Positions 5,885 through 24,352 of a stretch of DNA of 64,000 bases are shown piece after piece. The notes beneath the pieces were generated by a model. The model saw only the letters and a program-made list of their open reading frames with translations, ran no database searches and had not been told where the DNA came from. Position numbers and translations under genes: made by a program. Origin of the DNA: Escherichia phage SP27; sequence record LC494302.1. One strand, 5' to 3'. How positions within the stretch are numbered: the stretch's first letter is position 1; each line of letters starts with the position of its first letter.

Positions 5885-5978
5885 CAGTACTGAATTTTGG
5901 GCGTAACTATGCACCCGGTGGGCTTGAGTCTTTCTCGACTTGATGGAACTATTATACAGTACTGAAAAAATAAAGCAA
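5885..5978 (-). ncRNA. short promoter-driven noncoding unit, CCCAYMGGGTGC core (unit a)
   Basis: Minus strand TTGCTT (rc 5973-5978) /16/ TATAAT (rc 5951-5956); reads ...CAAGCCCACCGGGTGCATAGTTACGCCCAAAATT; no ORF. Confidence 0.4.
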
Positions 5979-6008
5979 TACCCTGGAAGCAAAAAAGTTT
6001 TAATTAAT

Positions 6009-6091
6009 TTGCTTGCTATCCTGGGCCGGACTATGGTACTATATTTCAGTACTGAGAAAGTGCGTTTACCTGCTAGGGTGCGGGAGTGTAT
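6009..6091 (+). ncRNA. short promoter-driven noncoding unit (unit b)
   Basis: TTGCTT 6009-6014 /17/ TATGGT 6032-6037; ...CTGCTAGGGTGCGGGAGTGTATCC then T-run 6084-6090. Confidence 0.35.
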
Positions 6092-6194
6092 CCTTTTTTT
6101 ATATCTTGAATTTTGGGCGTAATTCCGCACCCTCTGGGGTTTCCGCTTTCTCGCGTCTATGTAGTAATTATACGCTTTTTCAGGATCAAGTCAA
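6092..6194 (-). ncRNA. short promoter-driven noncoding unit (unit c), convergent with unit b
   Basis: Minus strand TTGACT (rc 6189-6194) /16/ TATAAT (rc 6167-6172); reads ...AACCCCAGAGGGTGCGGAATTACGCCCAAAATT. Confidence 0.4.
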
Positions 6195-6352
6195 TACCTA
6201 AAAACAAAATAATTGAAAATAATTTAACGCGTTTAAACGGCCCGTAACGCCCTGGAATGATTAGAATGGTGCAAATGTATAGCTTAGGTGTATTAATGCG
6301 TTAGAATGCGTCTGAGGCCGTTTTATGGGGTGTAGTAGTGATTTGGTTGATT

Positions 6353-6439
6353 CAGTACTGAATAATAGTACTCCTATATAGAAAGATAGTTCCCCTGGAT
6401 GGTTGCAGTACTGAATAATAGTACTCCTATATAGAAAGA
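6353..6439 (+). repeat. 34-bp direct repeat x2
   Basis: CAGTACTGAATAATAGTACTCCTATATAGAAAGA at 6353-6386 and 6406-6439, 19-bp spacer. Confidence 0.85.
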
Positions 6440-6470
6440 AAACTATTTTAAAAGTATTTGTAGAAAGTAC

Positions 6471-6530
6471 TTGCACCGTACTGATAAAAGCGTATAATGT
6501 TTTACATCGAGAGCGGGAACACTTCCCGCT
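6471..6530 (+). promoter_or_regulatory. early promoter + 5' hairpin cassette
   Basis: TTGCAC 6471-6476 /16/ TATAAT 6493-6498; hairpin AGCGGGAA-CAC-TTCCCGCT 6512-6530. Confidence 0.75.
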
Positions 6531-6553
6531 ACACATTAAGAGAGATTAAAACG

Positions 6554-6916
6554 ATGGCGACTCAAATCAATAAAATCATGCTTAACCTGGTAAACTTCCG
6601 CGATGAGATGAAAGGTCTTCCGGCTGAAACTGTAAAAATTCACATTGCAGCTTATCGGGAACTTATTGCAATGTTGCCGCTTAAGCGTGAACAATACGCC
6701 GCTACTTTGATGCTGGATTCAATGATCCATATAATGATCTCAAATGATTTAACGATGGTTTATCAGTACATGGGCGAAAATTTCGCGGTGTGTAGTAAGC
6801 CAGTACCAGGGATGGCAACAACTGAGGAATTGCACGGCTTAAACTTAAAACAAGATGCATGGGATAATATGCCTCGTTTCCTGGTATGGGCTGACAGTGG
6901 CAAAATTTACAAATAA
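6554..6916 (+). CDS. hypothetical protein
   Basis: 120 aa from MATQINKIM; track start 6497 lies inside promoter/hairpin so rejected; SD AAGAGAG. Confidence 0.8.
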   Translation: MATQINKIMLNLVNFRDEMKGLPAETVKIHIAAYRELIAMLPLKREQYAATLMLDSMIHIMISNDLTMVYQYMGENFAVCSKPVPGMATTEELHGLNLKQDAWDNMPRFLVWADSGKIYK

Positions 6917-6930
6917 GTTTAATAAAGTAC

Positions 6931-6989
6931 TTGCAAACTATGTTTAATGGCGTATAATGTTTTACATCAGGTGGGGAATAGTTCCCCAC
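6931..6989 (+). promoter_or_regulatory. early promoter + 5' hairpin cassette
   Basis: TTGCAA 6931-6936 /16/ TATAAT 6953-6958; hairpin GTGGGGAA-TAG-TTCCCCAC 6971-6989. Confidence 0.75.
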
Positions 6990-7008
6990 TATATAAGAGG
7001 ATTAAAAA

Positions 7009-7248
7009 ATGGCTAAATCAAAAATGTTCTTAGGTCACAAAAACAAAACTCATTGGAATGTAAGCCTGTGGATTAATAACGATGAGGGATTGTATCGGTT
7101 GGCCCTGGACTTTATTGCCGCCAATACTAATCGCAATGATGCGGCCCGTCATATGATGTTATTTTTAGAACAGACTGGACAAGATAAAACACCGGACGGA
7201 TTCAAATATAGCACTACTGCGATCCGTGCGGCGATGGTTGGAATGTAA
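7009..7248 (+). CDS. hypothetical protein (paralog of 9050..9289)
   Basis: 79 aa; shared HKNKTHWNVSLWINN...TPDGFKYSTTAIRAAMVGM. Confidence 0.85.
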   Translation: MAKSKMFLGHKNKTHWNVSLWINNDEGLYRLALDFIAANTNRNDAARHMMLFLEQTGQDKTPDGFKYSTTAIRAAMVGM

Positions 7249-7262
7249 TAGAATTTATTTAA

Positions 7263-7297
7263 AGTACTATCATTTTTTTGCGATAGTACTTTATAAT
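7263..7297 (+). promoter_or_regulatory. promoter with AGTACT inverted repeat (weak -35)
   Basis: AGTACTATC 7263-7271 / GATAGTACT 7282-7290, TATAAT 7292-7297; sister copy at 20303-20331 has TTGACA. Confidence 0.5.
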
Positions 7298-7334
7298 AGT
7301 GTTTTATTCATACACCAACGATAAGGGCAACAGC

Positions 7335-7601
7335 ATGAATATTAAGTATTTTGCGACGCGTGAACAAGCTCGGATCGCCGCACGCCAGGACGGGGCAACG
7401 TTTAAAGATATGGGAGCGGGATCGGCAAGTGGTGAACGTTGGGCCATTGTAAAGCGTAGTACGGCCAGATCTTTACAGTACTGGTTAGCGGCCTTAAAAA
7501 GTCCCGATAGTGTATCGCGTCGAGTGGTAGAAATAAAGCTCGACCGAAAGGGCAACCGCGTGACCGTGTACCGTACTAAAAAGATTGCAGTACTTGAATA
7601 A
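7335..7601 (+). CDS. hypothetical protein (paralog of 20376..20771)
   Basis: 88 aa from MNIKYFATREQARIAARQDGATFKDMG; C-term DRKGNRVTVYRTKK shared with paralog. Confidence 0.8.
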   Translation: MNIKYFATREQARIAARQDGATFKDMGAGSASGERWAIVKRSTARSLQYWLAALKSPDSVSRRVVEIKLDRKGNRVTVYRTKKIAVLE

Positions 7602-7608
7602 AAAGTAC

Positions 7609-7667
7609 TTGCAAACTATGTTTAATGGCGTATAATGTTTTACATCGAGAGCGGGAACACTTCCCGC
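7609..7667 (+). promoter_or_regulatory. early promoter + 5' hairpin cassette
   Basis: TTGCAA 7609-7614 /16/ TATAAT 7631-7636; hairpin GCGGGAA-CAC-TTCCCGC 7651-7667. Confidence 0.75.
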
Positions 7668-7688
7668 CTATAACCTGGAGTAATAAAA

Positions 7689-7919
7689 ATGACTAATATG
7701 TATATGACTGAAGTTAAAACCGTAAAAGATACTACCACGAATAAAACTACTTACTTACAGCGGATCTGTGGTGTATGGCAACGTATCAGCAAATCAAAGT
7801 ACTTTAAATTAACATCATATGCAAATCGTTCGGATTCATTCAGTACTGAAATAAAAGGTAATAAAGTACACCAATACGGCACTTATTATTATTATAGCCT
7901 GGACGCGATTGCAGTATAA
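7689..7919 (+). CDS. hypothetical protein
   Basis: 76 aa; SD GGAG 7677-7680; MTNMYMTEVKT. Confidence 0.8.
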   Translation: MTNMYMTEVKTVKDTTTNKTTYLQRICGVWQRISKSKYFKLTSYANRSDSFSTEIKGNKVHQYGTYYYYSLDAIAV

Positions 7920-7949
7920 GCAGTTTACAAATCTTTACAATTGCCGGTA

Positions 7950-8040
7950 TTGACTTATTTTGTCAGTACTGGCATAATGTATTCATTGGCAGATAAGCCG
8001 TAGCCCATAGGGTGCGGGAGTGTATCTATAGAAAAAGTAG
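7950..8040 (+). ncRNA. short promoter-driven noncoding unit (unit d)
   Basis: TTGACT 7950-7955 /17/ CATAAT 7973-7978; ...AGATAAGCCGTAGCCCATAGGGTGCGGGAGTGTATCTATAG; no ORF. Confidence 0.45.
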
Positions 8041-8122
8041 TTTAGTATAGTTACAATTGTGCACCCGGTGGGTTAGCTGTTGTCATGGGGTATATTATGC
8101 CAGTACTTGATAATGCTGTCAA
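8041..8122 (-). ncRNA. short promoter-driven noncoding unit (unit e), convergent with unit d
   Basis: Minus strand TTGACA (rc 8117-8122) /17/ CATAAT (rc 8094-8099); reads ...GCTAACCCACCGGGTGCACAATTGTAACTATAC. Confidence 0.45.
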
Positions 8123-8169
8123 TACTTTTTTTTTAATATTCAGTACTGAAAACTATTTTTAAAAAGTAC

Positions 8170-8197
8170 TTGCAAACTATGTTTAAAGGCGTATAAT
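8170..8197 (+). promoter_or_regulatory. early promoter (upstream of conserved leader)
   Basis: TTGCAA 8170-8175 /16/ TATAAT 8192-8197. Confidence 0.7.
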
Positions 8198-8203
8198 GTT
8201 TTA

Positions 8204-8287
8204 CATCAGGACGGGGAACGAAATAAGTAACTTCCCGTTAAGTAGCCCAGGAGTAAGGCACACGAAAAACTCCCCTGATAAAATAGT
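8204..8287 (+). ncRNA. conserved leader or short RNA of about 80 nt between tandem promoters
   Basis: No ATG; hairpin ACGGGGAA...TTCCCGT; near-identical copy at 19180-19260 with a compensated stem. Confidence 0.45.
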
Positions 8288-8315
8288 TTGACAATTGTTT
8301 TTAAAAGCGTATAAT
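8288..8315 (+). promoter_or_regulatory. sigma70-like promoter
   Basis: TTGACA 8288-8293 /16/ TATAAT 8310-8315; ATG 8348. Confidence 0.7.
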
Positions 8316-8347
8316 ACTTACATCAACTACTGAATGAGGGTTACAAA

Positions 8348-8959
8348 ATGAAAACTATCACTACTACTACTTATGTTATGGCTTTTTCTGAATTGAACGC
8401 AGAACAACAAACGTCAGCTATCGAACTGGTTCGGGAACGTGAAAAAAACTTAAACGATGATTATTTTTCTGAAAGTGAAATTGAATACTATAAAGAAACA
8501 GTACTACCGGAATATGGCATTAATGACGCTGAAATACAATTCAGTGGCTTTTGGTCCCAGGGTGACGGTGCATCAATCAGTACTGACCACGTTGACGCAG
8601 TGAAGTTTTTACGCAAGGTAAGAGCATTAACTAAGTATCGCTCAATCCGTCACTTGCTGAATGAAGATGATTTGGCGATGAGTGTAAAGCGTTCGCACTC
8701 CCACTACTCGCATGAGAATACTGTAAGCGGGTACATTGAATCGGCTTACACTGATTTAACCGCAAAACAAGAAACGTTAGTTAATGAGCTTGAGGAACTA
8801 CTCACTGAAACTATTCGTGAATTATCCCGCAAGTTGTACCGTGATTTAGAGAATGCATATGAGGATCAATTCACTACTGAAAACATTACGGCACTGATTG
8901 AGGGTAACGAATATCAATTCAATGTTATTGATGGAGTAGTAGAATCAATCGAATATTAA
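8348..8959 (+). CDS. hypothetical protein
   Basis: 203 aa; SD GAGGG; acidic; contains FSGFWSQGDGA motif that I cannot assign to a named family. Confidence 0.85.
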   Translation: MKTITTTTYVMAFSELNAEQQTSAIELVREREKNLNDDYFSESEIEYYKETVLPEYGINDAEIQFSGFWSQGDGASISTDHVDAVKFLRKVRALTKYRSIRHLLNEDDLAMSVKRSHSHYSHENTVSGYIESAYTDLTAKQETLVNELEELLTETIRELSRKLYRDLENAYEDQFTTENITALIEGNEYQFNVIDGVVESIEY

Positions 8960-8971
8960 TTTAAAAAGTAC

Positions 8972-9031
8972 TTGCAAACTAAGTTTAAAAGCGTATAATA
9001 CTTTATATCGAGGCGGGGAGTGGTTCCCCGC
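8972..9031 (+). promoter_or_regulatory. early promoter + 5' hairpin cassette
   Basis: TTGCAA 8972-8977 /16/ TATAAT 8994-8999; hairpin GCGGGGA...TCCCCGC 9013-9031. Confidence 0.75.
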
Positions 9032-9049
9032 TCAAACGAGGATTTAAAA

Positions 9050-9289
9050 ATGGCTAGTACTAAAACTTACAACGGACACAAAAACAAAACTCATTGGAAT
9101 GTAAGCCTTTGGATTAATAACGGTGAGTCATTGTATCGGCTTGCTCAAAGTTGCATCGCACAAAGTAGAACTAAAGATATTGCTGCGGAATGTATGTACC
9201 GCAGATTAAAAGCCAACGGTACTACTACAACGCCGGACGGCTTTAAGTATAGCACTACTGCGATCCGTGCTGCAATGGTTGGAATGTAA
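9050..9289 (+). CDS. hypothetical protein (paralog of 7009..7248)
   Basis: 79 aa from MASTKTYNGHKNKTHWNVSLWINN; track start 9020 runs through hairpin. Confidence 0.85.
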   Translation: MASTKTYNGHKNKTHWNVSLWINNGESLYRLAQSCIAQSRTKDIAAECMYRRLKANGTTTTPDGFKYSTTAIRAAMVGM

Positions 9290-9328
9290 TATTCAGTACT
9301 GAGATAATGGCGGGAACTATTACCCGCC
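9279..9328 (+). promoter_or_regulatory. weak promoter + 5' hairpin
   Basis: TTGGAA 9279-9284 /18/ GATAAT 9303-9308; hairpin GGCGGG...CCCGCC 9309-9328. Confidence 0.45.
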
Positions 9329-9346
9329 TTTACTGAGGGTTATCTA

Positions 9347-9634
9347 ATGAGTAAAGTAATAAAGTACAATGTGTTAAGCAAATCATTGTCTATCAGTGAA
9401 TGCACCGATGGTTTTTGGATGTACGATGAAACGCGTGGCATGAATTTAGCTATGCGTGCAAAAACTGCTGAGGCGGCGTATATTCAAGCACTGGAATACT
9501 ACCAGGAACGTTTGAAGGAAGTAGAAGAAGATTATAAAAGCCTCAAAGCGAAAGTAGATCATTTCGTCGGTCAATTCGTGGAAGACAACGACGAGGACGG
9601 GCACTACTGCGACCGTTGCGGATCTTACAGTTAA
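9347..9634 (+). CDS. hypothetical protein
   Basis: 95 aa; SD GAGGG; coiled-coil-like middle; C-term HYCDRCGSYS. Confidence 0.8.
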   Translation: MSKVIKYNVLSKSLSISECTDGFWMYDETRGMNLAMRAKTAEAAYIQALEYYQERLKEVEEDYKSLKAKVDHFVGQFVEDNDEDGHYCDRCGSYS

Positions 9635-9651
9635 GTACTAAGGATTATATA

Positions 9652-9864
9652 ATGAGTGATTTAATTGAACGTATCAAAGAGCTTGAAGAAAAAGAATTGC
9701 AGTTGATCGGGTTACGGAATAAAGTATTCCATGATTTAGGTGGCTTTATTAATGCCTGGGATAGTGGCGATCCTGATGCGTTACCTGCTAACCGCCAGGC
9801 GATGATCAATGATGTGCGTGGTGTCTTTGATTATGTTTTAAAAGTACTAGACACTAAGCAATAA
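9652..9864 (+). CDS. hypothetical protein
   Basis: 70 aa from MSDLIERIKELEEKE; SD AAGGA; track start 9616 overlaps upstream gene. Confidence 0.75.
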   Translation: MSDLIERIKELEEKELQLIGLRNKVFHDLGGFINAWDSGDPDALPANRQAMINDVRGVFDYVLKVLDTKQ

Positions 9865-9875
9865 AGGCGTATAAT
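9848..9875 (+). promoter_or_regulatory. sigma70-like promoter
   Basis: TAGACA 9848-9853 /16/ TATAAT 9870-9875. Confidence 0.55.
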
Positions 9876-9925
9876 ACTTTATATTGGTACTGACAAACAT
9901 TATAAGCGATGCAGGAGCTTTAATC

Positions 9926-10111
9926 ATGACAACATTATCTGAGGTTATCCGCGATCAAGCTGCAAAGGCTGGAATGACTGTTATCAATGTAGGGATCAAG
10001 ATTGAGATCTCCCCTAACGAGTTGCAAGGGATTCCCGATCCTACTAGCTGGGATCGTGCTGGGCGAATGATGAGTAATGCTTCATTACTGGACGGTACAA
10101 AATTTAATTAA
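9926..10111 (+). CDS. hypothetical protein
   Basis: 61 aa from MTTLSEVIRDQAAKAG; SD GCAGGAG 8 nt upstream; track start 9884 would precede the likely TSS. Confidence 0.7.
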   Translation: MTTLSEVIRDQAAKAGMTVINVGIKIEISPNELQGIPDPTSWDRAGRMMSNASLLDGTKFN

Positions 10112-10118
10112 AAAGTAC

Positions 10119-10178
10119 TTGCAATTAGTTTTCAGTACTGTATAATGGTTTACATCAAAGGGAGAAATGGTTCTCCCT
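10119..10178 (+). promoter_or_regulatory. early promoter + 5' hairpin cassette
   Basis: TTGCAA 10119-10124 /16/ TATAAT 10141-10146; hairpin AGGGAGAA-ATGG-TTCTCCCT 10159-10178. Confidence 0.75.
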
Positions 10179-10196
10179 GGTAATGAGGAAAATACA

Positions 10197-10418
10197 ATGG
10201 CTAATATCACTACTCTTTCCCAACTGGAAGCACTGGTTAAATCTATGCGGGAACATGCCGACAAAATCGGCGTACAAGATCCAGCCGTTTGCTTCTGCGA
10301 CGAATTGAATGATGATACACTGGTAATAGCAGAAGTCCAGGACGTTTCTAACTATTCCTCGCGTTACACTGGCGGCGTAGCAAATAAAGGTGACTTCTGT
10401 TTATACCTTACAAAATAA
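10197..10418 (+). CDS. hypothetical protein
   Basis: 73 aa from MANITTLSQLEAL; SD GAGGAA. Confidence 0.8.
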   Translation: MANITTLSQLEALVKSMREHADKIGVQDPAVCFCDELNDDTLVIAEVQDVSNYSSRYTGGVANKGDFCLYLTK

Positions 10419-10421
10419 CAA

Positions 10422-10455
10422 CGCGGGGAGATAATAACTCCCCGTTACTTTTTCA
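10422..10455. terminator. intrinsic terminator (possibly bidirectional)
   Basis: CGGGGAG 10424-10430 / CTCCCCG 10438-10444 then TTACTTTTT; A/T-rich on both sides. Confidence 0.7.
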
Positions 10456-10464
10456 GTACTGAAT

Positions 10465-10553
10465 CATTTAATAGACGGATCTCGGCACCCGGTGGGTTAG
10501 TGACTGTTTCGTCTTGATGTAGTAATTATGCCAGTACTGGATGCACTTGTCAA
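10465..10553 (-). ncRNA. short promoter-driven noncoding unit (unit f)
   Basis: Minus strand TTGACA (rc 10548-10553) /17/ CATAAT (rc 10525-10530); reads CATCAAGACGAAACAGTCACTAACCCACCGGGTGCCGAG. Confidence 0.45.
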
Positions 10554-10586
10554 CAACTATTTTTCAAATACTTTTTATTAAAATAC

Positions 10587-10641
10587 TTGCAATTAGTTTT
10601 TAAACGCGTATAATGTTTTGCATAGGGGGAGCGGTTCCCCT
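10587..10641 (+). promoter_or_regulatory. early promoter + 5' hairpin cassette
   Basis: TTGCAA 10587-10592 /16/ TATAAT 10609-10614; hairpin AGGGGGA-GCGG-TTCCCCT 10624-10641. Confidence 0.75.
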
Positions 10642-10661
10642 GGTAACTAAGGAATAATAAA

Positions 10662-10898
10662 ATGCTTGAACAAATCAAATCAACGTCTGCGAATGTAACG
10701 GGAACGGTTGTACACTTTACTAGTGATGAATCGCGGGGCGTTCCCTATTGTGCTGTACATGTAAACACTGATGGCAACTACTGGTTTACGGTTTACGGAT
10801 CATATTCATTTGGACGGCCAGGGCATCAAAAAATTCTGGATAAAGTACAACCAACGGGTAAAAATATCACTGCCGAAATGTTTTATAAAAAATCATAA
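10662..10898 (+). CDS. hypothetical protein
   Basis: 78 aa; SD AAGGAA; MLEQIKSTSANVTG. Confidence 0.8.
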   Translation: MLEQIKSTSANVTGTVVHFTSDESRGVPYCAVHVNTDGNYWFTVYGSYSFGRPGHQKILDKVQPTGKNITAEMFYKKS

Positions 10899-10903
10899 AG
10901 TAC

Positions 10904-10963
10904 TTGCAATTAGTTTTTAGTACTGTATAATATTTTACATCGCAAGGGGAAACGGTTTCCCCT
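10904..10963 (+). promoter_or_regulatory. early promoter + 5' hairpin cassette
   Basis: TTGCAA 10904-10909 /16/ TATAAT 10926-10931; hairpin AGGGGAA-ACGGT-TTCCCCT 10945-10963. Confidence 0.75.
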
Positions 10964-10982
10964 GGTAACTAAGGATAATCAA

Positions 10983-11282
10983 ATGAAAATTGCAATCATC
11001 GCCCTGGCTTTATCTGTTTCCTCTTTCGCTGTTAATGCGTCGTTAGATGTAAGTAGTGAAAAATTCATTCAGTGCACTGTTGCAATGACCGATGAAAGAA
11101 CTGGCGAGATTGTATTAAAGGATTTAGAGATCCAGCCGGAAGCATTTAAAAACGGCCCGTTCCATGAAGAAGACGAAAACGGTAGCACGACAATTTATTA
11201 TGATGCCAGTTCCAAGCGTGGATCGGTCACTGTAATGGATACTGAGAAAGTAACACACACAGGCGTTATTAATTGCCGTTGA
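10983..11282 (+). CDS. secreted or periplasmic protein (Sec-type signal peptide)
   Basis: 99 aa; MKIAIIALALSVSSFAVNA then SLDV: basic N-term, hydrophobic core, A-x-A-like site. Confidence 0.8.
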   Translation: MKIAIIALALSVSSFAVNASLDVSSEKFIQCTVAMTDERTGEIVLKDLEIQPEAFKNGPFHEEDENGSTTIYYDASSKRGSVTVMDTEKVTHTGVINCR

Positions 11283-11303
11283 TAGATACTACGGGGTAAC
11301 ATC

Positions 11304-11534
11304 ATGACTAAGCGAATTGTTTTACTTAACGAAAGCAGTACTACACAACTACTTAACGCCGTGCATTATGATATTGAAACGAGCGTTAATCTTATCAGTA
11401 CTGTAGTACTGTTGGACACTGGAAAGGTCGCCAATGATAAAGCGATTGCAGGTATATTAACGGATCTTGAGCCTGGTAGCAGTGCACCCATAACGTTAAA
11501 TGGTAAAGTGTTTAATATTTTACTCACTGATTAA
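11304..11534 (+). CDS. hypothetical protein
   Basis: 76 aa; SD ACGGGG; MTKRIVLLNESS. Confidence 0.75.
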   Translation: MTKRIVLLNESSTTQLLNAVHYDIETSVNLISTVVLLDTGKVANDKAIAGILTDLEPGSSAPITLNGKVFNILLTD

Positions 11535-11540
11535 GTACAT

Positions 11541-11566
11541 AGCCCACCAGGTGGGCTTTTTTGTTT
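11541..11566 (+). terminator. intrinsic terminator
   Basis: AGCCCAC-CAG-GTGGGCT 11541-11557 followed by TTTTTTGTTTTT. Confidence 0.85.
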
Positions 11567-11616
11567 TTATAGTATCGTAGTACTGAGATACTTTGAAAAT
11601 AGTTTTAAGAAAGTAG

Positions 11617-18581: not shown

Positions 18582-18598
18582 TAGAAGGAGTACAGCTT

Positions 18599-18691: not shown

Positions 18692-18861
18692 TTCAAGTAG
18701 AATTATCAGTACTGAAAGATCTGTTTTATCGGTTAGGTACTACTGGAGAGTATCCTAAAAGTGATACCGCAAAACTTTTTGTATCACTCGATTTATGGCA
18801 ACGCGAACAATTAGTAATGTCCTGGCGTAAAGGTAAAGCAGATAGCGAGGTGAAAGCATGA
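18688..18861 (+). CDS. small hypothetical protein
   Basis: 57 aa, below track cutoff; ATGA overlap; MIQVELSVLKDLFYRLGTTGEYPKSD... Confidence 0.55.
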   Translation: MIQVELSVLKDLFYRLGTTGEYPKSDTAKLFVSLDLWQREQLVMSWRKGKADSEVKA

Positions 18862-19007
18862 AAGAATTCTTATTCGAAGTAGTGTTTCAAGGTGTCGGTA
18901 GTAATCAATTGATTCGCTCAAGTGGTTACAATGTTAACCAGGCATGGAATAACATTAAACAAATGTACCCGAACGCTATCACATATCGCAACCCAAAAGA
19001 AGTTTAA
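18858..19007 (+). CDS. small hypothetical protein
   Basis: 49 aa, below track cutoff; ATGA overlap; MKEFLFEVVFQGVGSNQLIRSSGYNVNQAWNNIKQMYPNAITYRNPKEV. Confidence 0.55.
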   Translation: MKEFLFEVVFQGVGSNQLIRSSGYNVNQAWNNIKQMYPNAITYRNPKEV

Positions 19008-19015
19008 AAATAATT

Positions 19016-19105
19016 GAAAAAGGGATTGACTCCGGTCAGTCCCTTTGCTATTATATACGCATAGAAACAAATCAGCCCACCGGGTGCATAAATGTATCTA
19101 TTGTT
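19016..19105 (+). ncRNA. short promoter-driven noncoding unit (unit i), promoter embedded in terminator-like hairpin
   Basis: GGGATTGAC-TCCG-GTCAGTCCC holds TTGACT 19026-19031 /17/ TATTAT 19049-19054; CATAGAAACAAATCAGCCCACCGGGTGCATAAATGTATCTATTG. Confidence 0.45.
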
Positions 19106-19145
19106 TGCTGGTGGCTAGTACTGAAAACTATTTTTAAAAAAGTAC

Positions 19146-19173
19146 TTGCATTGTACTTAGAATCAAGTATAAT
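19146..19173 (+). promoter_or_regulatory. early promoter (upstream of conserved leader)
   Basis: TTGCAT 19146-19151 /16/ TATAAT 19168-19173. Confidence 0.7.
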
Positions 19174-19179
19174 GTTTTA

Positions 19180-19260
19180 CATCAGGACGGGGAACGAAAC
19201 AAGTAACCCCGTTAAGTAGTCCAGGAGTAAGACATACGAAAAACTCCCCTGATAAAATAG
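19180..19260 (+). ncRNA. conserved leader or short RNA of about 80 nt between tandem promoters (copy 2)
   Basis: Near-identical to 8204-8287; stem ACGGGG...CCCCGT; no ATG. Confidence 0.45.
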
Positions 19261-19261
19261 T

Positions 19262-19289
19262 TTGACAATAGAAAGTAAACGAGTATAAT
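19262..19289 (+). promoter_or_regulatory. sigma70-like promoter
   Basis: TTGACA 19262-19267 /16/ TATAAT 19284-19289. Confidence 0.7.
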
Positions 19290-19322
19290 ACTTACATCAA
19301 CCACTGATAAGGAAACATAAAA

Positions 19323-19598
19323 ATGCGGATTCTACTGACAGCTAACGAAATCGAACAAGTACTGACTACTAACCTGGAAGACTGGAAACGTGAAGCAGAT
19401 ATCCAGGCGGTTCAATGGTTAAATGATAAGTTAACGCCGGATGACTTAAGCAAGATTGTAGATCCTCAATTCTACGAAGATATCCACGACACCGCGTTAA
19501 GCGTCGAGGATGTACTAGATAAGCACTTTATTGATACTGATTTGCAGGTTTACGGTCGTAAAAACTTTATCACTATTCACGACATTTACAATAATTAA
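19323..19598 (+). CDS. hypothetical protein
   Basis: 91 aa; SD AAGGAA; acidic; MRILLTANEIEQVL. Confidence 0.8.
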   Translation: MRILLTANEIEQVLTTNLEDWKREADIQAVQWLNDKLTPDDLSKIVDPQFYEDIHDTALSVEDVLDKHFIDTDLQVYGRKNFITIHDIYNN

Positions 19599-19601
19599 GT
19601 A

Positions 19602-19663
19602 TTGACAAAGTATCTTAGTACTGTATAATAGTTTACATCGAGTGAGGGGAAACGGTTCCCCTC
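19602..19663 (+). promoter_or_regulatory. early promoter + 5' hairpin cassette
   Basis: TTGACA 19602-19607 /16/ TATAAT 19624-19629; hairpin GAGGGGAA-ACGG-TTCCCCTC 19644-19663. Confidence 0.75.
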
Positions 19664-19686
19664 CTAACAAAGAGAGAGAAATAAAA

Positions 19687-19869
19687 ATGGCTAAGTGCAC
19701 TATCTGCAAGAAAGAAATAGTATTAGTTCCAAGTGCCCGTGAACGTGCCGCTCGGTTCGGTGGCAAAGCGTCAGACTATACAAAAATGTTTACTGCCCAT
19801 ACAGCTTGCCAGGTAGCAAAACGTTCACAAGAAAGCGTAGAATTAATGCGTAAACTTTCCAAAAAATAA
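19687..19869 (+). CDS. small protein with C-x2-C ... H-x2-C pattern
   Basis: 60 aa from MAKCTICKKEIVLVPS ... FTAHTACQVAK; SD AGAGAGAGA; track start 19642 lies in hairpin. Confidence 0.75.
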   Translation: MAKCTICKKEIVLVPSARERAARFGGKASDYTKMFTAHTACQVAKRSQESVELMRKLSKK

Positions 19870-19872
19870 GTA

Positions 19873-19933
19873 TTGACAAAGTATCTTAGTACTGTATAAT
19901 AGTTTACATCAAGTGAGGGGAATGGTTCCCCTC
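19873..19933 (+). promoter_or_regulatory. early promoter + 5' hairpin cassette (near-duplicate of 19602-19663)
   Basis: TTGACA 19873-19878 /16/ TATAAT 19895-19900; hairpin GAGGGGAA-TGG-TTCCCCTC 19915-19933. Confidence 0.75.
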
Positions 19934-19956
19934 CTAACTAAAAGAGAGAAATAAAA

Positions 19957-20280
19957 ATGGCTATGATCCTTGCCCAGAAAGTAGAATTGAAAATTGTAAC
20001 CTCCTTTGACATTAACGTTAATCGGTGGACTGATTCACACGGCAATACTTACCACTCTTGCTACGTGTCTGCGTTAATTGGCGACCGCTGGGAAGACCTG
20101 GGACACGAAACCTTTACATACGGTTACGGTACACAAGGCGAATACACGGGCTTGGAGATCATTAAAGAAACCGTTATAGGTTTCAACCCGAAAGAAAAAG
20201 TTATTCACCGCATCGAGGAAGAGATCAACAAAGAAATAACAGTTCGCTACCACGATGTAAAACGTAAGAAAGACATGTAA
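19957..20280 (+). CDS. hypothetical protein (paralog of 13074..13418)
   Basis: 107 aa; GNTYHS ... YGYG ... DVKRKKDM. Confidence 0.85.
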   Translation: MAMILAQKVELKIVTSFDINVNRWTDSHGNTYHSCYVSALIGDRWEDLGHETFTYGYGTQGEYTGLEIIKETVIGFNPKEKVIHRIEEEINKEITVRYHDVKRKKDM

Positions 20281-20302
20281 TAGAATCCATTTAAAGTACT
20301 AT

Positions 20303-20331
20303 TTGACATTGCCCAGATAGTACTTTATAAT
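20303..20331 (+). promoter_or_regulatory. promoter with AGTACT inverted repeat
   Basis: AGTACTA-TTGACA 20303-20308 /17/ TATAAT 20326-20331, GATAGTACT in spacer. Confidence 0.7.
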
Positions 20332-20375
20332 AGACTCTAACTTGTAGTACTAACTCAACTAATAGGATGTATACC

Positions 20376-20771
20376 ATGATTACTAAATTCTACGCTACCC
20401 GTGAAGCTGCCCGTATTGTTGCACGCGAGGAAGGCGAAACATTTAAAGACATGGGCAAAGATGCACCGAAAGGTCAACGCTGGGCCGTACAGTTCAAAGA
20501 GATCTCTGATATTGTGAATTCACCGGAGCCAGTACTAACAGCAGCAGAACTAAAACGAGCGGATTTACTGGCGTCAATACTTGATGCACAAGATGAGTTT
20601 ATCGCTGATTCTGATATCAAAGTACAGACAAACCACACCGCTTGGACTCACGCGGATCACCTGGCAAACCTTAAGCGTCCAAGTGAACTGATTCGCAACC
20701 AGAAAGAGATCCGACACGACCGTAAGGGTAATCGTGTAACAGTATACAGTAAACGCCGCCAGGTTATCTAA
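20376..20771 (+). CDS. hypothetical protein (paralog of 7335..7601)
   Basis: 131 aa from MITKFYATREAARIVAREEGETFKDMG; SD AGGA 7 nt upstream; alternative ATG at 20367. Confidence 0.8.
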   Translation: MITKFYATREAARIVAREEGETFKDMGKDAPKGQRWAVQFKEISDIVNSPEPVLTAAELKRADLLASILDAQDEFIADSDIKVQTNHTAWTHADHLANLKRPSELIRNQKEIRHDRKGNRVTVYSKRRQVI

Positions 20772-20793
20772 TAACTTGCAGTACTAACAACAC

Positions 20794-20818
20794 GGCGGGA
20801 TCAGTTCCCGCCTTTTTT
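20794..20818 (+). terminator. intrinsic terminator
   Basis: GGCGGGA 20794-20800 / TCCCGCC 20806-20812 then TTTTTT. Confidence 0.85.
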
Positions 20819-20832
20819 ATAGGACAAACAAA

Positions 20833-21087
20833 ATGATTAAGGTTCAACTATATAAAGATAACATCTTACGGGTACACTATAAAGCACCTCAGAGAATCAT
20901 CACAAAGGCCGTACAGCTTGCAAATGAGTTTATTAATGGTAACCTATTACCTAGGAAGTTAAGCAACGGGAAACTGCGTGTAATCGACGTGGACACTAAC
21001 AACAGGATAGTAATCGAGAACACAGGAAAGATAAACCTTTATGAGCATCAACAATACAATAAGAAAATAAAACTAATATCACGTTGA
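20833..21087 (+). CDS. hypothetical protein
   Basis: 84 aa; SD AGGA; MIKVQLYKDNILRV. Confidence 0.75.
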   Translation: MIKVQLYKDNILRVHYKAPQRIITKAVQLANEFINGNLLPRKLSNGKLRVIDVDTNNRIVIENTGKINLYEHQQYNKKIKLISR

Positions 21088-21112
21088 CAGTACTCAAATG
21101 TTTTAGTACTAT
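21084..21112 (+). promoter_or_regulatory. sigma70-like promoter
   Basis: TTGACA 21084-21089 /17/ TACTAT 21107-21112. Confidence 0.6.
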
Positions 21113-21140
21113 ATGTACATACCAACACGGGGGAAACAAA

Positions 21141-21383
21141 ATGATTACTTTAGAAAAACGTATCAAAGAAACTACATCGCTGGTGGAACTGTTAACAGTA
21201 CTCAAATGTAAAACAACACCATTCAGCACGCCGGACTTTATTAATATGGTTGATGTTAATGGTCGCTATCGTATCACGGTCGAACAAGGAGCGGCGAAAG
21301 TATTCAGTACTAAAAACACGAAGGAAGTGATCCACGCCGTTAATGTTAAAAAAGTAGTTGCCATTGATAGTAAAGTACTGTAA
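21141..21383 (+). CDS. hypothetical protein
   Basis: 80 aa from MITLEKRIKETTS; SD GGGGGAA; track start 21084 coincides with the -35 element. Confidence 0.75.
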   Translation: MITLEKRIKETTSLVELLTVLKCKTTPFSTPDFINMVDVNGRYRITVEQGAAKVFSTKNTKEVIHAVNVKKVVAIDSKVL

Positions 21384-21414
21384 GATAGTTACATTAACTC
21401 AAGGAGAACATGCA

Positions 21415-21999
21415 ATGCGTAATTATACTAAATTCATCCGTACACTGTCAGAAATGGAAACCAACAAAGAGATCCTTTCAGCTTGTCGGTTAGCTGGCCT
21501 GGAGATCATCGGTGCTGGTTCTTCCCGTATAGTTTTCGCTTTAAATGATCGGTTAGTGATTAAGGTCGCGAATTGTGATGCGGGTGTAGAACAAAATGAA
21601 ACTGAATGTAAGGTATGGAATTTTTTAGACTATGACCGCCCTCAGTTGAAACAGTACTTTGCAAAGGTGCATATGCATTTATGCGATCCTGATAATATGT
21701 TTATCGTTATGGATCGGTTGAGTACTGCAAGTAAAGGCAGTGTGAAGCACGTAAACGCGTGCAATGAATTAAAGTACAATATTAAACGTAATGCAATCGA
21801 CCGCCAGCACCGCTTTGCTGATGCACTACAACACGTTGATGATACATTATCAACACTAACGATAAGAGATATCAGAAAACAGAATATCGGCCAGGATCGT
21901 AATGGACTTATTAAAGTACTTGATTACGGTTTAACCAGCAATATCTGGAATCAGTACTATAAAAAGCGTGATGTGGCAGCAAGTAAGGTAACACGATAA
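21415..21999 (+). CDS. protein-kinase-like protein (putative Ser/Thr kinase fold)
   Basis: 194 aa from MRNYTKF; SD AAGGAG; IGAGSSRIVF (Gly loop), VIKVA (Lys), DIRKQNIG (D-x-K-x-x-N catalytic loop), VLDYG (DFG-like). Confidence 0.65.
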   Translation: MRNYTKFIRTLSEMETNKEILSACRLAGLEIIGAGSSRIVFALNDRLVIKVANCDAGVEQNETECKVWNFLDYDRPQLKQYFAKVHMHLCDPDNMFIVMDRLSTASKGSVKHVNACNELKYNIKRNAIDRQHRFADALQHVDDTLSTLTIRDIRKQNIGQDRNGLIKVLDYGLTSNIWNQYYKKRDVAASKVTR

Positions 22000-22007
22000 A
22001 AAAGATT

Positions 22008-22100
22008 AAAAAAGGGATTGACTCCGGTCAGTCCCTTTGCTATTATATATCCATTGAGAGATAACTCACTGACCCATAGGGTGCGGAAGTGTATCTATTA
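22008..22100 (+). ncRNA. short promoter-driven noncoding unit (unit j), promoter embedded in terminator-like hairpin
   Basis: GGGATTGAC-TCCG-GTCAGTCCC; TTGACT 22018-22023 /17/ TATTAT 22041-22046; ...GAGATAACTCACTGACCCATAGGGTGCGGAAGTGTATCTATTA. Confidence 0.45.
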
Positions 22101-22140
22101 TATAAGTATTCAGTACTGAAAACTATTTTTAAAAAAGTAC

Positions 22141-22200
22141 TTGCATTGTACTTAGAATCAAGTATAATGTTTTATATCGAGAGGGGAAATGGTTCTCCCT
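22141..22200 (+). promoter_or_regulatory. early promoter + degenerate 5' hairpin
   Basis: TTGCAT 22141-22146 /16/ TATAAT 22163-22168; AGGGGAAA...TTCTCCCT 22182-22200 with one mismatch. Confidence 0.65.
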
Positions 22201-22219
22201 GGCAATAAGGAATAAAATC

Positions 22220-22441
22220 ATGACTACAATGACTTGCATTTACGCTTCCAATCTACTGAATGATGCGGCCTTTAATGTTGATTCAGAATATCAATGTTAT
22301 CGGGATGAAAATAAAAAAGTTTTTGTAGTTGATAATAATGGTTTCCATATTGAATTACAATCCGGCTTCACTGGTGTTGATGGTAAATCAGTATGGGGCG
22401 TACAGGATGATAAAGGCACATATCATTTTAAACGTAATTAA
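22220..22441 (+). CDS. hypothetical protein
   Basis: 73 aa; SD AAGGAA; MTTMTCIYASNLL. Confidence 0.8.
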   Translation: MTTMTCIYASNLLNDAAFNVDSEYQCYRDENKKVFVVDNNGFHIELQSGFTGVDGKSVWGVQDDKGTYHFKRN

Positions 22442-22444
22442 GTA

Positions 22445-22503
22445 TTGACAAAGTATACCAGTACTGTATAATAGTTTACATCAAGGGGAGAATAGTTCTC
22501 CCC
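22445..22503 (+). promoter_or_regulatory. early promoter + 5' hairpin cassette
   Basis: TTGACA 22445-22450 /16/ TATAAT 22467-22472; hairpin GGGGAGAA-TAG-TTCTCCCC 22485-22503. Confidence 0.75.
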
Positions 22504-22525
22504 GATACTAAAAGGAAACAAAATT

Positions 22526-22798
22526 ATGTCCAGCTACTCCGCTACTATGATCATTAAAGATATGAACGGTAATCCTACTTCTGCTGGTGGATCATTTGGA
22601 AACATTAATTTAGATGGTCGGTTATCCATGCAATCAGCAATCGATGCAGCGAAAGAAGTTTTTAAGAATGAATGTACTGTTAGTAAGCTGGATTATATGG
22701 GATTTGCTATCGAAAAAACTAATCGTTTTGTGGACTACAAAAAACCACTGATGATTGATACTAACCTGAAAGCAAACGAAGTGGAGTACTTATTATGA
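22526..22798 (+). CDS. hypothetical protein
   Basis: 90 aa; SD AAAGGAA; MSSYSATMIIKDMNG. Confidence 0.8.
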   Translation: MSSYSATMIIKDMNGNPTSAGGSFGNINLDGRLSMQSAIDAAKEVFKNECTVSKLDYMGFAIEKTNRFVDYKKPLMIDTNLKANEVEYLL

Positions 22799-22986
22799 CA
22801 GTTGAAGAAGTTAAAAAAGTACTGGCAGTACTACGCTATCATAATCATTGTAAGGTGAAGAATGATCCTGATTATCTTGATTCATCCCTGGAAGAGGATA
22901 CACTACAAGCAATAAGCCATATGCAAACATTAGCAAAGCGTATGACCGAAAAGAATAGACCGGACTATATCGGAAATAAAATTTAA
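22795..22986 (+). CDS. hypothetical protein
   Basis: 63 aa; ATGA overlap; MTVEEVKKVLAVL. Confidence 0.75.
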   Translation: MTVEEVKKVLAVLRYHNHCKVKNDPDYLDSSLEEDTLQAISHMQTLAKRMTEKNRPDYIGNKI

Positions 22987-22993
22987 AAAGTAC

Positions 22994-23054
22994 TTGCATT
23001 GTAGTTAGATTAACGTATAATGTTTTACATAGAGCGGGGGAATAGTTCTCCCGC
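22994..23054 (+). promoter_or_regulatory. early promoter + 5' hairpin cassette
   Basis: TTGCAT 22994-22999 /16/ TATAAT 23016-23021; hairpin GCGGGGGAA-TAG-TTCTCCCGC 23034-23054 (one G-U). Confidence 0.75.
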
Positions 23055-23072
23055 CAGTCCAGGAGATACACC

Positions 23073-23336
23073 ATGAACACTATCGAAATCACTATCAATG
23101 CACACGTATACGACAACGTAATCATGCAAACTACTATGACCGCTAATGATACCAGTACTTTGCGGAATACTGTTATTAGTGCCGTATGTGCCGCTATCGG
23201 TGATGTCGCCCTGGAAAATGCAGAACATATCAACAACGGTTTCACTATGTGCAAGCGTGATAACGCAAAACATATCATCGTAGAAGGTTACGGCGGTGTA
23301 GAATTTAATGTTTATATGAAAAAAGTACTTGCATAA
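23073..23336 (+). CDS. hypothetical protein
   Basis: 87 aa; SD CAGGAG; MNTIEITINAHVYDN; 3' end overlaps next promoter. Confidence 0.8.
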   Translation: MNTIEITINAHVYDNVIMQTTMTANDTSTLRNTVISAVCAAIGDVALENAEHINNGFTMCKRDNAKHIIVEGYGGVEFNVYMKKVLA

Positions 23337-23385
23337 TAACTAAAACAAAGTATAATGTTTTGCATAGGGGGAGATATCCTCCCCC
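23329..23385 (+). promoter_or_regulatory. early promoter + 5' hairpin cassette
   Basis: TTGCAT 23329-23334 /16/ TATAAT 23351-23356; hairpin GGGGGAG...CTCCCCC 23367-23385. Confidence 0.7.
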
Positions 23386-23403
23386 ACTAAAAGGAGTAAT
23401 AAA

Positions 23404-23628
23404 ATGGCTAACTTTGATGAACTGATGCGGGAAGTAGCTAACCTGGCAGAAGAGAAGAAATCATTCGATTCTATCTATAACACCGCTCATCGTGATTCAG
23501 TACTGGCATGTACTCAGGATCAAAAAGATGAACTAATCGCCACCTATCATGAAGCATGGAAGTACTACCGACAATGGGAGAAAGAAGAAAGAGAGTCTAC
23601 CATTGACGGCCTCAACAATCTAATCTAA
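23404..23628 (+). CDS. hypothetical protein
   Basis: 74 aa; SD AAGGAG; MANFDELMREVANL. Confidence 0.85.
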   Translation: MANFDELMREVANLAEEKKSFDSIYNTAHRDSVLACTQDQKDELIATYHEAWKYYRQWEKEERESTIDGLNNLI

Positions 23629-23647
23629 AAGTTTTATTTCAGTACTA

Positions 23648-23676
23648 TTGACATAGCTTGATAGTACTGATGTAAT
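23648..23676 (+). promoter_or_regulatory. type-B promoter flanked by AGTACT inverted repeat
   Basis: CAGTACTA-TTGACA 23648-23653 /17/ TGTAAT 23671-23676. Confidence 0.6.
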
Positions 23677-23704
23677 AACTTTACTAACTACAAGGGGAAA
23701 CATA

Positions 23705-23962
23705 ATGGAACAGTTCACACAATATCGGGTAAATCCTCAAGCTATGGCCTACGTAGAAGACCATAAAACATTACCAGTACTAACACCAATTAAAGGCCAT
23801 ATCTATCGTGCAATGTCATGGAATACCGCCCAGGATGGATATACTACCGCTGGCGTGGGTATGTATTGCGGGAATGGTGAATGGTTTGATCCAAATAATC
23901 CGGTAGCCATTGACAGTACTGAAAAAATGAAATGGGCCGACTACATCGAAGATATTTCATAA
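23705..23962 (+). CDS. hypothetical protein
   Basis: 85 aa; SD AAGGGGAA; MEQFTQYRVNPQ. Confidence 0.8.
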   Translation: MEQFTQYRVNPQAMAYVEDHKTLPVLTPIKGHIYRAMSWNTAQDGYTTAGVGMYCGNGEWFDPNNPVAIDSTEKMKWADYIEDIS

Positions 23963-23968
23963 AACTAT

Positions 23969-24029
23969 TTGACAGTACTAACCAGTAATGTATAATGTTT
24001 TACATAGAGCGGGGGAATAGTTCTCCCGC
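23969..24029 (+). promoter_or_regulatory. early promoter + 5' hairpin cassette
   Basis: TTGACA 23969-23974 /16/ TATAAT 23991-23996; hairpin GCGGGGGAA-TAG-TTCTCCCGC 24009-24029. Confidence 0.75.
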
Positions 24030-24051
24030 CAATAGTTTGGAGTAAAACATT

Positions 24052-24252
24052 ATGTCTATCGCTATCGCCCTGGTTGAAGTACTGAAAGAAGCTAAAGCCA
24101 ACCAGATCGACGTAAAGATCCAGGAACTACAAAACGGCGTAATCGGCTGTACTTGTACCGCTGGTGGAGCGGCAGACTATCGAGAACACGAATCACTCGA
24201 ATCACTGGTTCGGTATCTTACCATGATCGTTGATGATTGGAGAATCATCTAA
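24052..24252 (+). CDS. hypothetical protein
   Basis: 66 aa; SD TGGAG; MSIAIALVEVLKEAK. Confidence 0.8.
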   Translation: MSIAIALVEVLKEAKANQIDVKIQELQNGVIGCTCTAGGAADYREHESLESLVRYLTMIVDDWRII

Positions 24253-24264
24253 CAAAAAAGAATA

Positions 24265-24352
24265 AAAAAGGGATTGACTCCGGTCAGTCCCTTTGCTATT
24301 ATATACGCATAGACAAAAACTAGCCCACAGGGTGCATAGGTGTATCTAAAAT
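24265..24352 (+). ncRNA. short promoter-driven noncoding unit (unit k), promoter embedded in terminator-like hairpin
   Basis: GGGATTGAC-TCCG-GTCAGTCCC; TTGACT 24275-24280 /16/ TATTAT 24297-24302; CATAGACAAAAACTAGCCCACAGGGTGCATAGGTGTATCTAAA. Confidence 0.45.

Follow-up and report, generated by a model that had tools for sequence, protein, structure and literature searches.

To our knowledge, almost nothing is known about the start of infection by the RaK2-like jumbo phages (about 350 kb), several of which are candidates for phage therapy. One question concerns a set of short units that a preliminary description, made from the letters alone, had pointed out in a 64,000-nucleotide stretch of Escherichia phage SP27 (LC494302.1; this whole 64-kb stretch is called the window below). 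What are these eleven units (a to k, window 5885-24352), which were said to be free of open reading frames (ORFs) and to have promoters of their own and a common core? Small regulatory RNAs, antisense pairs, protein-binding DNA sites and decayed terminator-promoter modules had been offered as options. We show here that the units are copies of a conserved element that is confined to the terminal repeat, that each copy has a strong promoter-like sequence and that the element is under selection for RNA base pairing, in agreement with the small-RNA option. The location in the terminal repeat, the spread across host genera, a variable hairpin (P2) and two competing helices in the core had been missed before.

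A multi-copy element confined to the terminal repeat

All eleven units were found at the places given in the preliminary description. The 12-nt core CCCAYMGGGTGC has nine exact matches in the window and none in 100 shuffles, and units c and b carry the variants CCCCAGAGGGTGC and CCTGCTAGGGTGC, respectively, which form the identical hairpin with a 4-nt loop. Good promoters had been claimed for every unit; this holds for nine, which agree with TTGACA-N16/17-TATAAT at 10-11 of 12 positions and in eight cases have a TGn extended -10, while units a (TTGCTT-16-TATAAT) and b (TTGCTA-18-TACTAT) are weaker. The unit promoters are among the strongest promoter matches in the genome. A CA dinucleotide sets an A at the seventh base past the -10 hexamer in all units except e and b, and this A is the predicted start site. 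The only ORFs overlapping the units are mechanical TTG/GTG ORFs, and ten units lack a Shine-Dalgarno (SD) sequence and an ATG as described; unit e opens by chance with AUG and 10 codons. Rather than the two tail types reported, three were identified, namely UGUAWCUAU, UUACGCCCAAAAUU (a, c) and CCGUCUAUU (f), all of which are versions of one YRYCY tail.

A covariance model of the copies, a step proposed in the preliminary description, was built on 13 copies and included only P2, a hairpin between start site and core, and P3, the hairpin of the core itself. This model, R1, recovers 10 of the 11 window units with scores of 25-62 bits and nothing else in the 64 kb at E<=1; unit b falls below detection at this threshold, yet shows every family feature on inspection. 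In total, R1 finds 84 copies (79 distinct) in 13 loci and detects the family in all relatives tested, which are phages infecting five host genera. Syntenic units occur in G17, 121Q and CMSTMSU, many copies of the same layout in Yersinia phage fHe-Yen9-04, Pectobacterium phage CBB, Klebsiella RaK2 and Cronobacter GAP32, and the family is also present in a locus related to Klebsiella fENko-Kae01 and Salmonella SE_PL. These last five are among the loci, from contigs of 345-378 kb, that a scan of IMG/VR with a pattern of core and tail had yielded. The family layout consists of a sigma-70 promoter, P2, CUAR, RCCC-AYA-GGGU-GC, a spacer and the YRYCY tail within the direct terminal repeat (DTR), the motif that follows the promoter being 40-50 nt long. 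Phages of Klebsiella, Cronobacter, Pectobacterium and Yersinia carry 10-12 copies of this architecture in each terminal repeat. The CC/GG stem positions are identical in 79 of 79 distinct copies, and the other core positions almost so; the core is thus kept across genera, and the conservation in related phages called for earlier is present. Proteins encoded next to the units share only 30-50% identity across genera, and the constraint on the core, as judged from the sequences, is stronger than that on the neighbouring repeat-encoded proteins compared.

The region of the window at 5700-10700 matches about 200 phage records, the best being ∼350-kb Escherichia jumbo phages of the genus Asteriusvirus with 86-98% identity (SHEFM2K, phAPEC6, EC.P1, fEgEco12, G17, PBECO4 and 121Q). 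These records contain only 'hypothetical protein' genes across the region and leave the units themselves without annotation. Positions 5700-9042 of the window correspond to 888-4234 of fEgEco12, and 24800-26800 to fEgEco12 20043-22043 as well as to the annotated 'Direct Terminal Repeats' feature of vB_Ec-M-J. Since the DTR of fEgEco12 comprises 20,993 bp, as confirmed by restriction digests (PMC13070987), homology places the segment of the window equivalent to the ∼21-kb Asteriusvirus repeat at about 4813-25750. Its GC content is 0.36-0.41, compared to 0.30-0.35 outside. All eleven units lie inside this segment, and the covariance model detects none in the remaining ∼43 kb of the window. Likewise, all 10 model matches in fENko-Kae01 (DTR 1-19736) and all 12 in CBB (DTR 1-22456) are located inside the annotated repeat with none in the 4 kb beyond, and in a pattern scan of the whole 121Q genome the matches were confined to this same region.

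The units have no counterpart among the known RNAs that were compared. No Rfam 15 family matches the core, and the whole window gives no match at the gathering threshold; at E<=10, positions 5800-8200 gave chance matches only, none of them centred on a unit. ARAGORN predicted no tRNA or tmRNA gene in the 64 kb, and neither the core nor its complement matches the host 16S/23S/5S operon at up to two mismatches, so that tRNA or tmRNA identity and rRNA pairing or mimicry were rejected. A 27-nt pattern had no match in 185,579 bacterial and archaeal species genomes, although this pattern is strict and diverged copies may escape it. The literature on Sharanji, CBB, fEgEco12 and PA5oct and full-text searches contained no description of the units. 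The Pseudomonas jumbo phage PA5oct has two noncoding RNAs in its terminal repeat, ncRNA001 and ncRNA002, of 236 and 451 nt (PMC7318152). A relation to these was rejected, as they lack the core motif and R1 gives no match in that locus.

Base pairing in the unit RNA

The best-supported helix is P2, a 3-5-bp hairpin with a purine-rich loop (67% A, 21% G; most commonly GAGAAA, AGAUAA or GCGAAA), which is replaced by an A-rich strand in the short forms e, i and k. There are 22 distinct P2 stems with compensatory changes. On an alignment of the 79 distinct sequences that was fitted to R1, double-sided changes number 16, 35 and 24 at the three inner pairs, with 1, 1 and 4 cells unpaired. Because this alignment was fitted to the model, an alignment-free test was added, in which stems of at least 4 bp were found in 19 of 53 distinct 5' regions compared to 3.9 in shuffles (maximum 9 in 300). 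The combined covariation score of P2 and P3 is 0.344, compared to 0.123 in shuffles, none of 500 of which reached the observed value, and at most 0.044 with slid partners.

The second helix, P3 (RCCC-AYA-GGGU, followed by GC), is almost invariant. Its first pair occurs as G.U and as A-U in 38 copies each. The innermost one is C-G in 76 copies and has changed to U-A in 2 others, independently of each other, and a pair that is U.G in unit b of the window is U-A in 121Q. There are three compensated P3 variants. The core is followed by a purine-rich spacer of 5-6 nt and the YRYCY tail, which has changed by 85 transitions and 9 transversions compared to 150 and 163 in the flanking columns (Fisher p=9e-15, with cells that are not independent). 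The tail is able to pair with GGGUG(C) in 91% of cells, compared to at most 65% in slid registers, and every common variant keeps this pairing. The resulting helix, P3', and P3 are mutually exclusive and have mean energies of -3.66 and -3.05 kcal/mol, respectively. Since the tail can thus replace CCC as the partner of GGGUG, the core has two states of nearly equal energy.

Closing helices of the type AGATA/TATCT and CACT/AGTG had been proposed as well. They occur in the minimum-energy folds of the d/g/j subfamily but are not supported across the family, as the 5' part of a unit pairs with its own tail no better than with the tails of other units (duplex energies, p=0.32).

Free-standing RNAs and the alternatives

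To assess whether the units are genes of their own or leaders of others, we considered their orientation and their 3' context. Of 73 copies, 28 (38%) are oriented against all local genes and 45 are co-oriented. The anti-oriented copies face either a convergent copy or, 25-35 nt past the tail, a GC hairpin and its U-rich run; an AU-rich stretch together with a terminator hairpin is present in them. Where a co-oriented copy has an ORF with an SD sequence within 250 nt, a separate sigma-70-type promoter lies between the two in 29 of 36 cases. Together, the anti-oriented copies and the separate gene promoters favour independent small RNA genes.

We therefore put forward, tentatively and with slightly more doubt than trust, that the units may be free-standing immediate-early small RNAs with a two-state core, whose core and loop are read by a protein. 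Transcription of every copy by the host sigma-70 RNA polymerase would begin at the first base of the copy, driven by a near-consensus promoter with, in most cases, an extended -10, and the RNAs would be made early and abundantly, as free-standing species, from the early-gene region of RaK2-like phages of Enterobacterales. The A-rich strand is mostly displayed as the P2 loop, and the sequence of the P2 stem is free to vary. A phage or host protein would read the invariant core and the purine-rich loop, with the RNA serving, for example, as a sponge or an adaptor, and which of P3 and P3' forms might decide whether the CCC strand or the tail is exposed. P3' might also serve as a terminator in unit b and a few other copies.

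Several observations count against this proposal. For the unit RNAs, start sites, 3' ends and abundance are predictions. Between a co-oriented unit and the gene that follows it there is mostly no terminator; at least 6 U within 9 nt after P3', as expected of an intrinsic terminator, are seen in only 6 of 69 members and, in the window, only in unit b. Lacking a terminator of its own, the RNA of a co-oriented unit may be just the 5' end of a longer mRNA, and one copy (L015:12602) is a true 5' untranslated region (UTR), with SD and ATG 21 nt past the unit. The folding energies of single units are unremarkable (z -0.07 to -1.77), the pair counts come from the alignment fitted to R1, and P3' is backed by one-sided changes only, as its 5' strand never varies, and cannot be tested by shuffling. 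Runs of ARN, of the Hfq type, are not above base composition (1.82 vs. 1.74). Finally, Pfam and PHROGs revealed no obvious candidate for an RNA-binding partner among the repeat-encoded ORFs, matching GNAT, DksA/TraR, a ParE-like domain, DUF7247 and, weakly, a kinase.

Ranked by our confidence, the rival explanations are a cis-acting leader, convergent-transcription devices, promoter cassettes or relics, and a DNA operator. According to the leader explanation, which we consider unlikely, the motif would alter either the polymerase that transcribes it or its own transcript, by processive antitermination of the put/nut type, by pausing, or through a P3/P3' attenuator that governs read-through into the early gene downstream. 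It would account for a motif that begins at +1 of strong promoters, for the 45 of 73 co-oriented units, for the missing terminators and for the true 5' UTR at L015:12602, and the region is rich in intrinsic terminators that an antiterminator could override. As in lambda nut (boxA + boxB) and HK022 put, whose RNAs render RNA polymerase insensitive to terminators, a promoter-proximal RNA in a terminator-rich setting has a hairpin of variable stem and purine-rich loop adjoining a conserved sequence. However, no boxA-like sequence is present near any unit (CGCUCUUA-like strings are confined to 26857-52763), an N-like protein was not identified, the P2 loops are purine-rich loops of 4-8 nt rather than pentaloops, and the P3 loop of 3-4 nt does not resemble a GNRA-like pentaloop. 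Moreover, the 38% of units with an orientation opposite to all local genes lead either into a terminator or towards a unit convergent with them, and the 29 of 36 downstream genes with promoters of their own have them 20-160 nt past the unit. As to attenuation, the consecutive segments CCC, GGGUG and YRYCY give two exclusive hairpins, like those of attenuators or of the expression platforms of riboswitches. The second hairpin runs into a stretch of U's in unit b and a few relatives, but in most copies P3' is weak (about -3.7 kcal/mol) and lacks the U's, and many copies have no downstream gene. Neither a cis-regulatory family of Rfam nor any ligand-binding family matches the units.

Convergent pairs are real, as described, for b/c and d/e. 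In named relatives (121Q, CBB, fENko-Kae01, the Yersinia phage and loci L005 and L015) there are one to three pairs per repeat, and one or two per terminal repeat in every genus; in three genera the first is only ∼1-1.3 kb away from the left end. The units could accordingly be devices of convergent transcription, in which antisense or double-stranded RNA or colliding polymerases insulate or silence neighbouring early genes and the core simply forms a long two-way hairpin in paired units. In one case (L015 6112), the transcript that reads through a unit folds with the antisense of the core of its partner. We regard this as very unlikely, as 7 of the 11 window units are unpaired and neither the covarying P2 hairpin nor the invariant, non-palindromic core of unpaired units would be explained. 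The arrangement behind the antisense option is conserved in every genus, but it concerns a minority of units and is therefore not the general mode of the family.

Even less probable are mobile or duplicated regulatory cassettes, or decayed terminator-promoter modules kept as recombination substrates or relics. They would fit units scattered among small, shuffled early genes and a terminator-like hairpin overlapping the -35 in g, i, j and k, which recalls the promoter-early stem-loops (PeSLs) of T4-type phages, likewise repeated hairpins with sigma-70 early promoters among small early genes of a plastic region. A stem-loop upstream of or overlapping the promoter is found in these four units, but not in a-f or h. 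PeSLs, which Arbiol et al. are said to have described in 2010, reportedly consist of stem-loop and promoter only, whereas in the units it is the transcribed sequence past the start site, outside the terminator-promoter, that is conserved and covaries. The core had also been likened to half of the AGCCCAC...GTGGGCT terminator stems; such terminators exist at 11541 and 12272, but the likeness is superficial. Decay is contradicted by a core that is near-invariant in 79 distinct copies next to proteins of 30-50% identity, while the surrounding stems change with compensation; relics would retain neither the pairing nor a tail that changes by transitions. The least probable explanation is a DNA-level site, with the core at +20 to +32 acting as an operator or roadblock that shuts off the strong promoters. 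Its invariance and fixed distance from the promoter would suit such a site, and a second palindrome, (C)AGTACT(G), is enriched in promoter spacers and just past the units. The core, however, is not palindromic, and a protein-binding DNA site leaves the compensatory changes in P2 and P3 and the G.U-compatible transitions of the tail, which are signatures of RNA pairing, unexplained.

Compared with known systems, the units add a new family to a general kind of RNA already known, the phage small RNAs, and are unusual in copy number, placement and their bistable core. Like phage small noncoding RNAs and orphan structured motifs they are short, ORF-free and covarying in structure, with a sigma-70 promoter of their own, and some copies end at a Rho-independent terminator. 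Unlike them, they have an invariant 12-nt core with two competing helices and occur as 10-12 dispersed paralogues per terminal repeat, presumably double that per packaged genome, in a family found only in the repeat. RNA anti-CRISPRs (Racr) are solitary, promoter-driven phage units that resemble CRISPR repeats and possibly act as protein decoys. The units are likewise small promoter-driven hairpin RNAs and possible decoys, but their best local alignment scores with the E. coli I-E and I-F repeats (28-29 nt) are only 5-8, and the core is the same in phages whose hosts would be expected to carry different CRISPR types. Separately from the units, AGTTCCCCTACCGCGTGGGGATA at window 5757-5779 is identical to the E. 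coli type I-E repeat at 17 of 23 positions, including both conserved flanks, AGTTCCCC and GGGGATA; this may be chance, or the sequence may be a member of a GGGGA..TCCCC hairpin family. An NAD-capped RNA is considered unlikely, as the C at -1 and the U at +2 of the predicted start sites would not fit the published consensus of NAD-capping promoters.

A more far-reaching form of the small-RNA proposal, which we consider quite unlikely, is that the repeat holds an RNA-only immediate-early device for host takeover or counter-defence. A dozen strong promoters, present twice per genome and on the first DNA to enter, would flood the cell with a bistable RNA within seconds and before any phage protein, and this RNA would titrate or reprogram a conserved enterobacterial protein, for example a nuclease, an RNA chaperone or RNA polymerase itself.

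The units and the repeat around them

The leftmost group comprises units a to c. Unit a (5898-5978, minus strand; 47 bits) has its -35 TTGCTT at 5978-5973, its -10 TATAAT at 5956-5951, a start at ∼5944, the P2 AGUC-GAGAAA-GACU, a core at 5922-5911 and a tail, CGCCC, that gives a strong P3'; it is oriented against the local genes. Unit b (6013-6101, plus strand), with -35 TTGCTA, -10 TACTAT at 6037-6042 and a start at ∼6049, is convergent with unit c; its P2 is GUAC-UGAGAAA-GUGC and its core CCUGCUAGGGUGC lies at 6069-6081. Its P3' (GGGUGC/GUAUCC) with seven U resembles an intrinsic terminator (6075-6101; hairpin 6075-6094 followed by T7). Unit c (6114-6194, minus strand; 25 bits) has -35 TTGACT at 6194-6189, -10 TATAAT at 6172-6167, a start at ∼6160, the P2 CGC-GAGAAA-GCG, the core CCCCAGAGGGUGC at 6139-6127 with a 4-nt loop, and the tail CGCCC.

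In the second convergent pair, unit d (7950-8028, plus strand; 46 bits) has -35 TTGACT at 7950-7955, TGn-CATAAT at 7973-7978, a start at ∼7985, the P2 UGGC-AGAUAA-GCCG, a core at 8004-8015 and the tail UAUCU, while unit e (8048-8122, minus strand; 31 bits), a short form without P2, has -35 TTGACA at 8122-8117, TGn-CATAAT at 8099-8094, a start at ∼8087, a core at 8072-8061 and the tail UAACU. In 121Q, a 61-codon 'hypothetical protein' (gene 270; L002 22250-22435) is annotated over the d/e pair; this annotation is probably spurious, since the window has no ORF of at least 40 aa at the equivalent place. Unit f (10472-10553, minus strand; 56 bits) has -35 TTGACA at 10553-10548, TGn-CATAAT at 10530-10525, a start at ∼10518, the P2 GAC-GAAACA-GUC, a core at 10496-10485 and the tail CGUCU, and faces a two-way terminator hairpin at 10444-10424. 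Unit h (16663-16744, plus strand; 55 bits) has -35 TTGACA at 16663-16668, TGn-CATAAT at 16686-16691, a start at ∼16698, the P2 GACG-AGAA-CGUC, a core at 16720-16731 and the tail UAACU.

The remaining four units, all on the plus strand, are fused to 12-bp terminator-like hairpins, AAAGGGATTGAC-TCCG-GTCAGTCCCTTT, whose arms include the -35 hexamer of the unit. Unit g (14984-15070; 57 bits) has its hairpin at 14984-15011, -35 TTGACT at 14991-14996, TGn-TATTAT at 15014-15019, a start at ∼15026, the P2 UGAG-AGAUAG-CUCA and a core at 15046-15057. Unit j (22011-22097), top-scoring of all window units with 62 bits, has its hairpin at 22011-22038, the -35 at 22018-22023, TGn-TATTAT at 22041-22046, a start at ∼22053, the P2 UGAG-AGAUAA-CUCA and a core at 22073-22084. 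Both others are short forms: unit i (19019-19100; 36 bits), with an A-rich 5' strand and no P2, has its hairpin at 19019-19046, the -35 at 19026-19031, TGn-TATTAT at 19049-19054, a start at ∼19061 and a core at 19076-19087, and unit k (24267-24348; 40 bits), of the form UAG-ACAAAAA-CUA, has its hairpin at 24267-24294, the -35 at 24274-24279, TGn-TATTAT at 24297-24302, a start at ∼24309 and a core at 24324-24335.

The palindrome CAGTACTG occurs 65 times in the whole window, compared to 0.65 expected (for example at 5885, 5957, 6047, 7964, 10532, 16677 and 22111), and is probably a protein site. In 31 of 69 family members the promoter spacer contains AGTACT, which provides the TG of the extended -10. 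AGTAC of the AGTACT palindrome follows within 25 nt downstream of 43 of 69 copies, compared to ∼17% expected, and given this enrichment AGTACT may be involved in the formation of 3' ends. Behind promoters of protein genes (TTGACA or TTGCAA, a 16-nt spacer and TATAAT) lies another conserved leader, made up of GTTTTACATC and a hairpin of the GGGGAA...TTCCCC or GCGGGAA...TTCCCGC type directly ahead of the SD sequence, among other places at 6470-6545, 6931-7010, 7609-7690 and 8170-8250; this is probably a 5' stabilising hairpin.

Measured from the left physical end, the first convergent pair is found at ∼1.0-1.3 kb in CBB and fENko-Kae01 and, as judged by homology, also in the phage of the window (L019 988-1096, L018 981-1108, window 6049-6160). 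Fur-box-like palindromes, GAGAATGATAATCATTTAC (16/19 to consensus), stand between or beside convergent units in three relatives (L015 6091-6109, L005 912-1304, L006 344-362), with five in 400 bp in L005 where 1.8 were expected overall; the terminal-repeat segment of the window has none at a comparable place. The presumed left-terminal 1.6 kb (∼4813-6470) has no convincing ORF. It contains short repeats (GGATGG, GACGG and CTGGA) at 5540-5730 and two orphan promoters, at ∼5186-5216 (plus strand), whose RNA would begin with half a core, AUAGGGUGAUGAG, and at 5853-5825 (minus strand).

The Chi sequence for RecBCD, GCTGGTGG, is present 11 times in the window, compared to 0.35 expected, and 10 of these sites are in the terminal-repeat segment (5398-24389; the other is at 63553). 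Eight of the ten are on the plus strand and two on the minus strand, at 12318 and at 5398, ∼0.6 kb from the presumed left end. By the known rule of Chi orientation, such a layout would face RecBCD coming in from either physical end. One site (19107) follows unit i at 7 nt and another (24382) unit k at 34 nt. Proteins of the repeat with recognisable folds include one with a ParE-like toxin domain (20833-21087; PF24732, E=6e-11), which is kept in five loci of relatives, a DksA/TraR C4 zinc finger (16990-17247) and a GNAT acetyltransferase (17311-17667).

The ∼20-kb terminal repeats of RaK2-like phages are annotated as strings of hypothetical proteins, and the unit family, itself unannotated, is among their most conserved features. 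If made as predicted, the unit RNAs would count among the earliest phage products in the cell, and among the most abundant, and would offer a concrete handle on early host takeover. A single probe, for example the anti-core oligonucleotide GCACCCUGUGGG, would detect all copies, and the two-state core could be a compact natural RNA switch.

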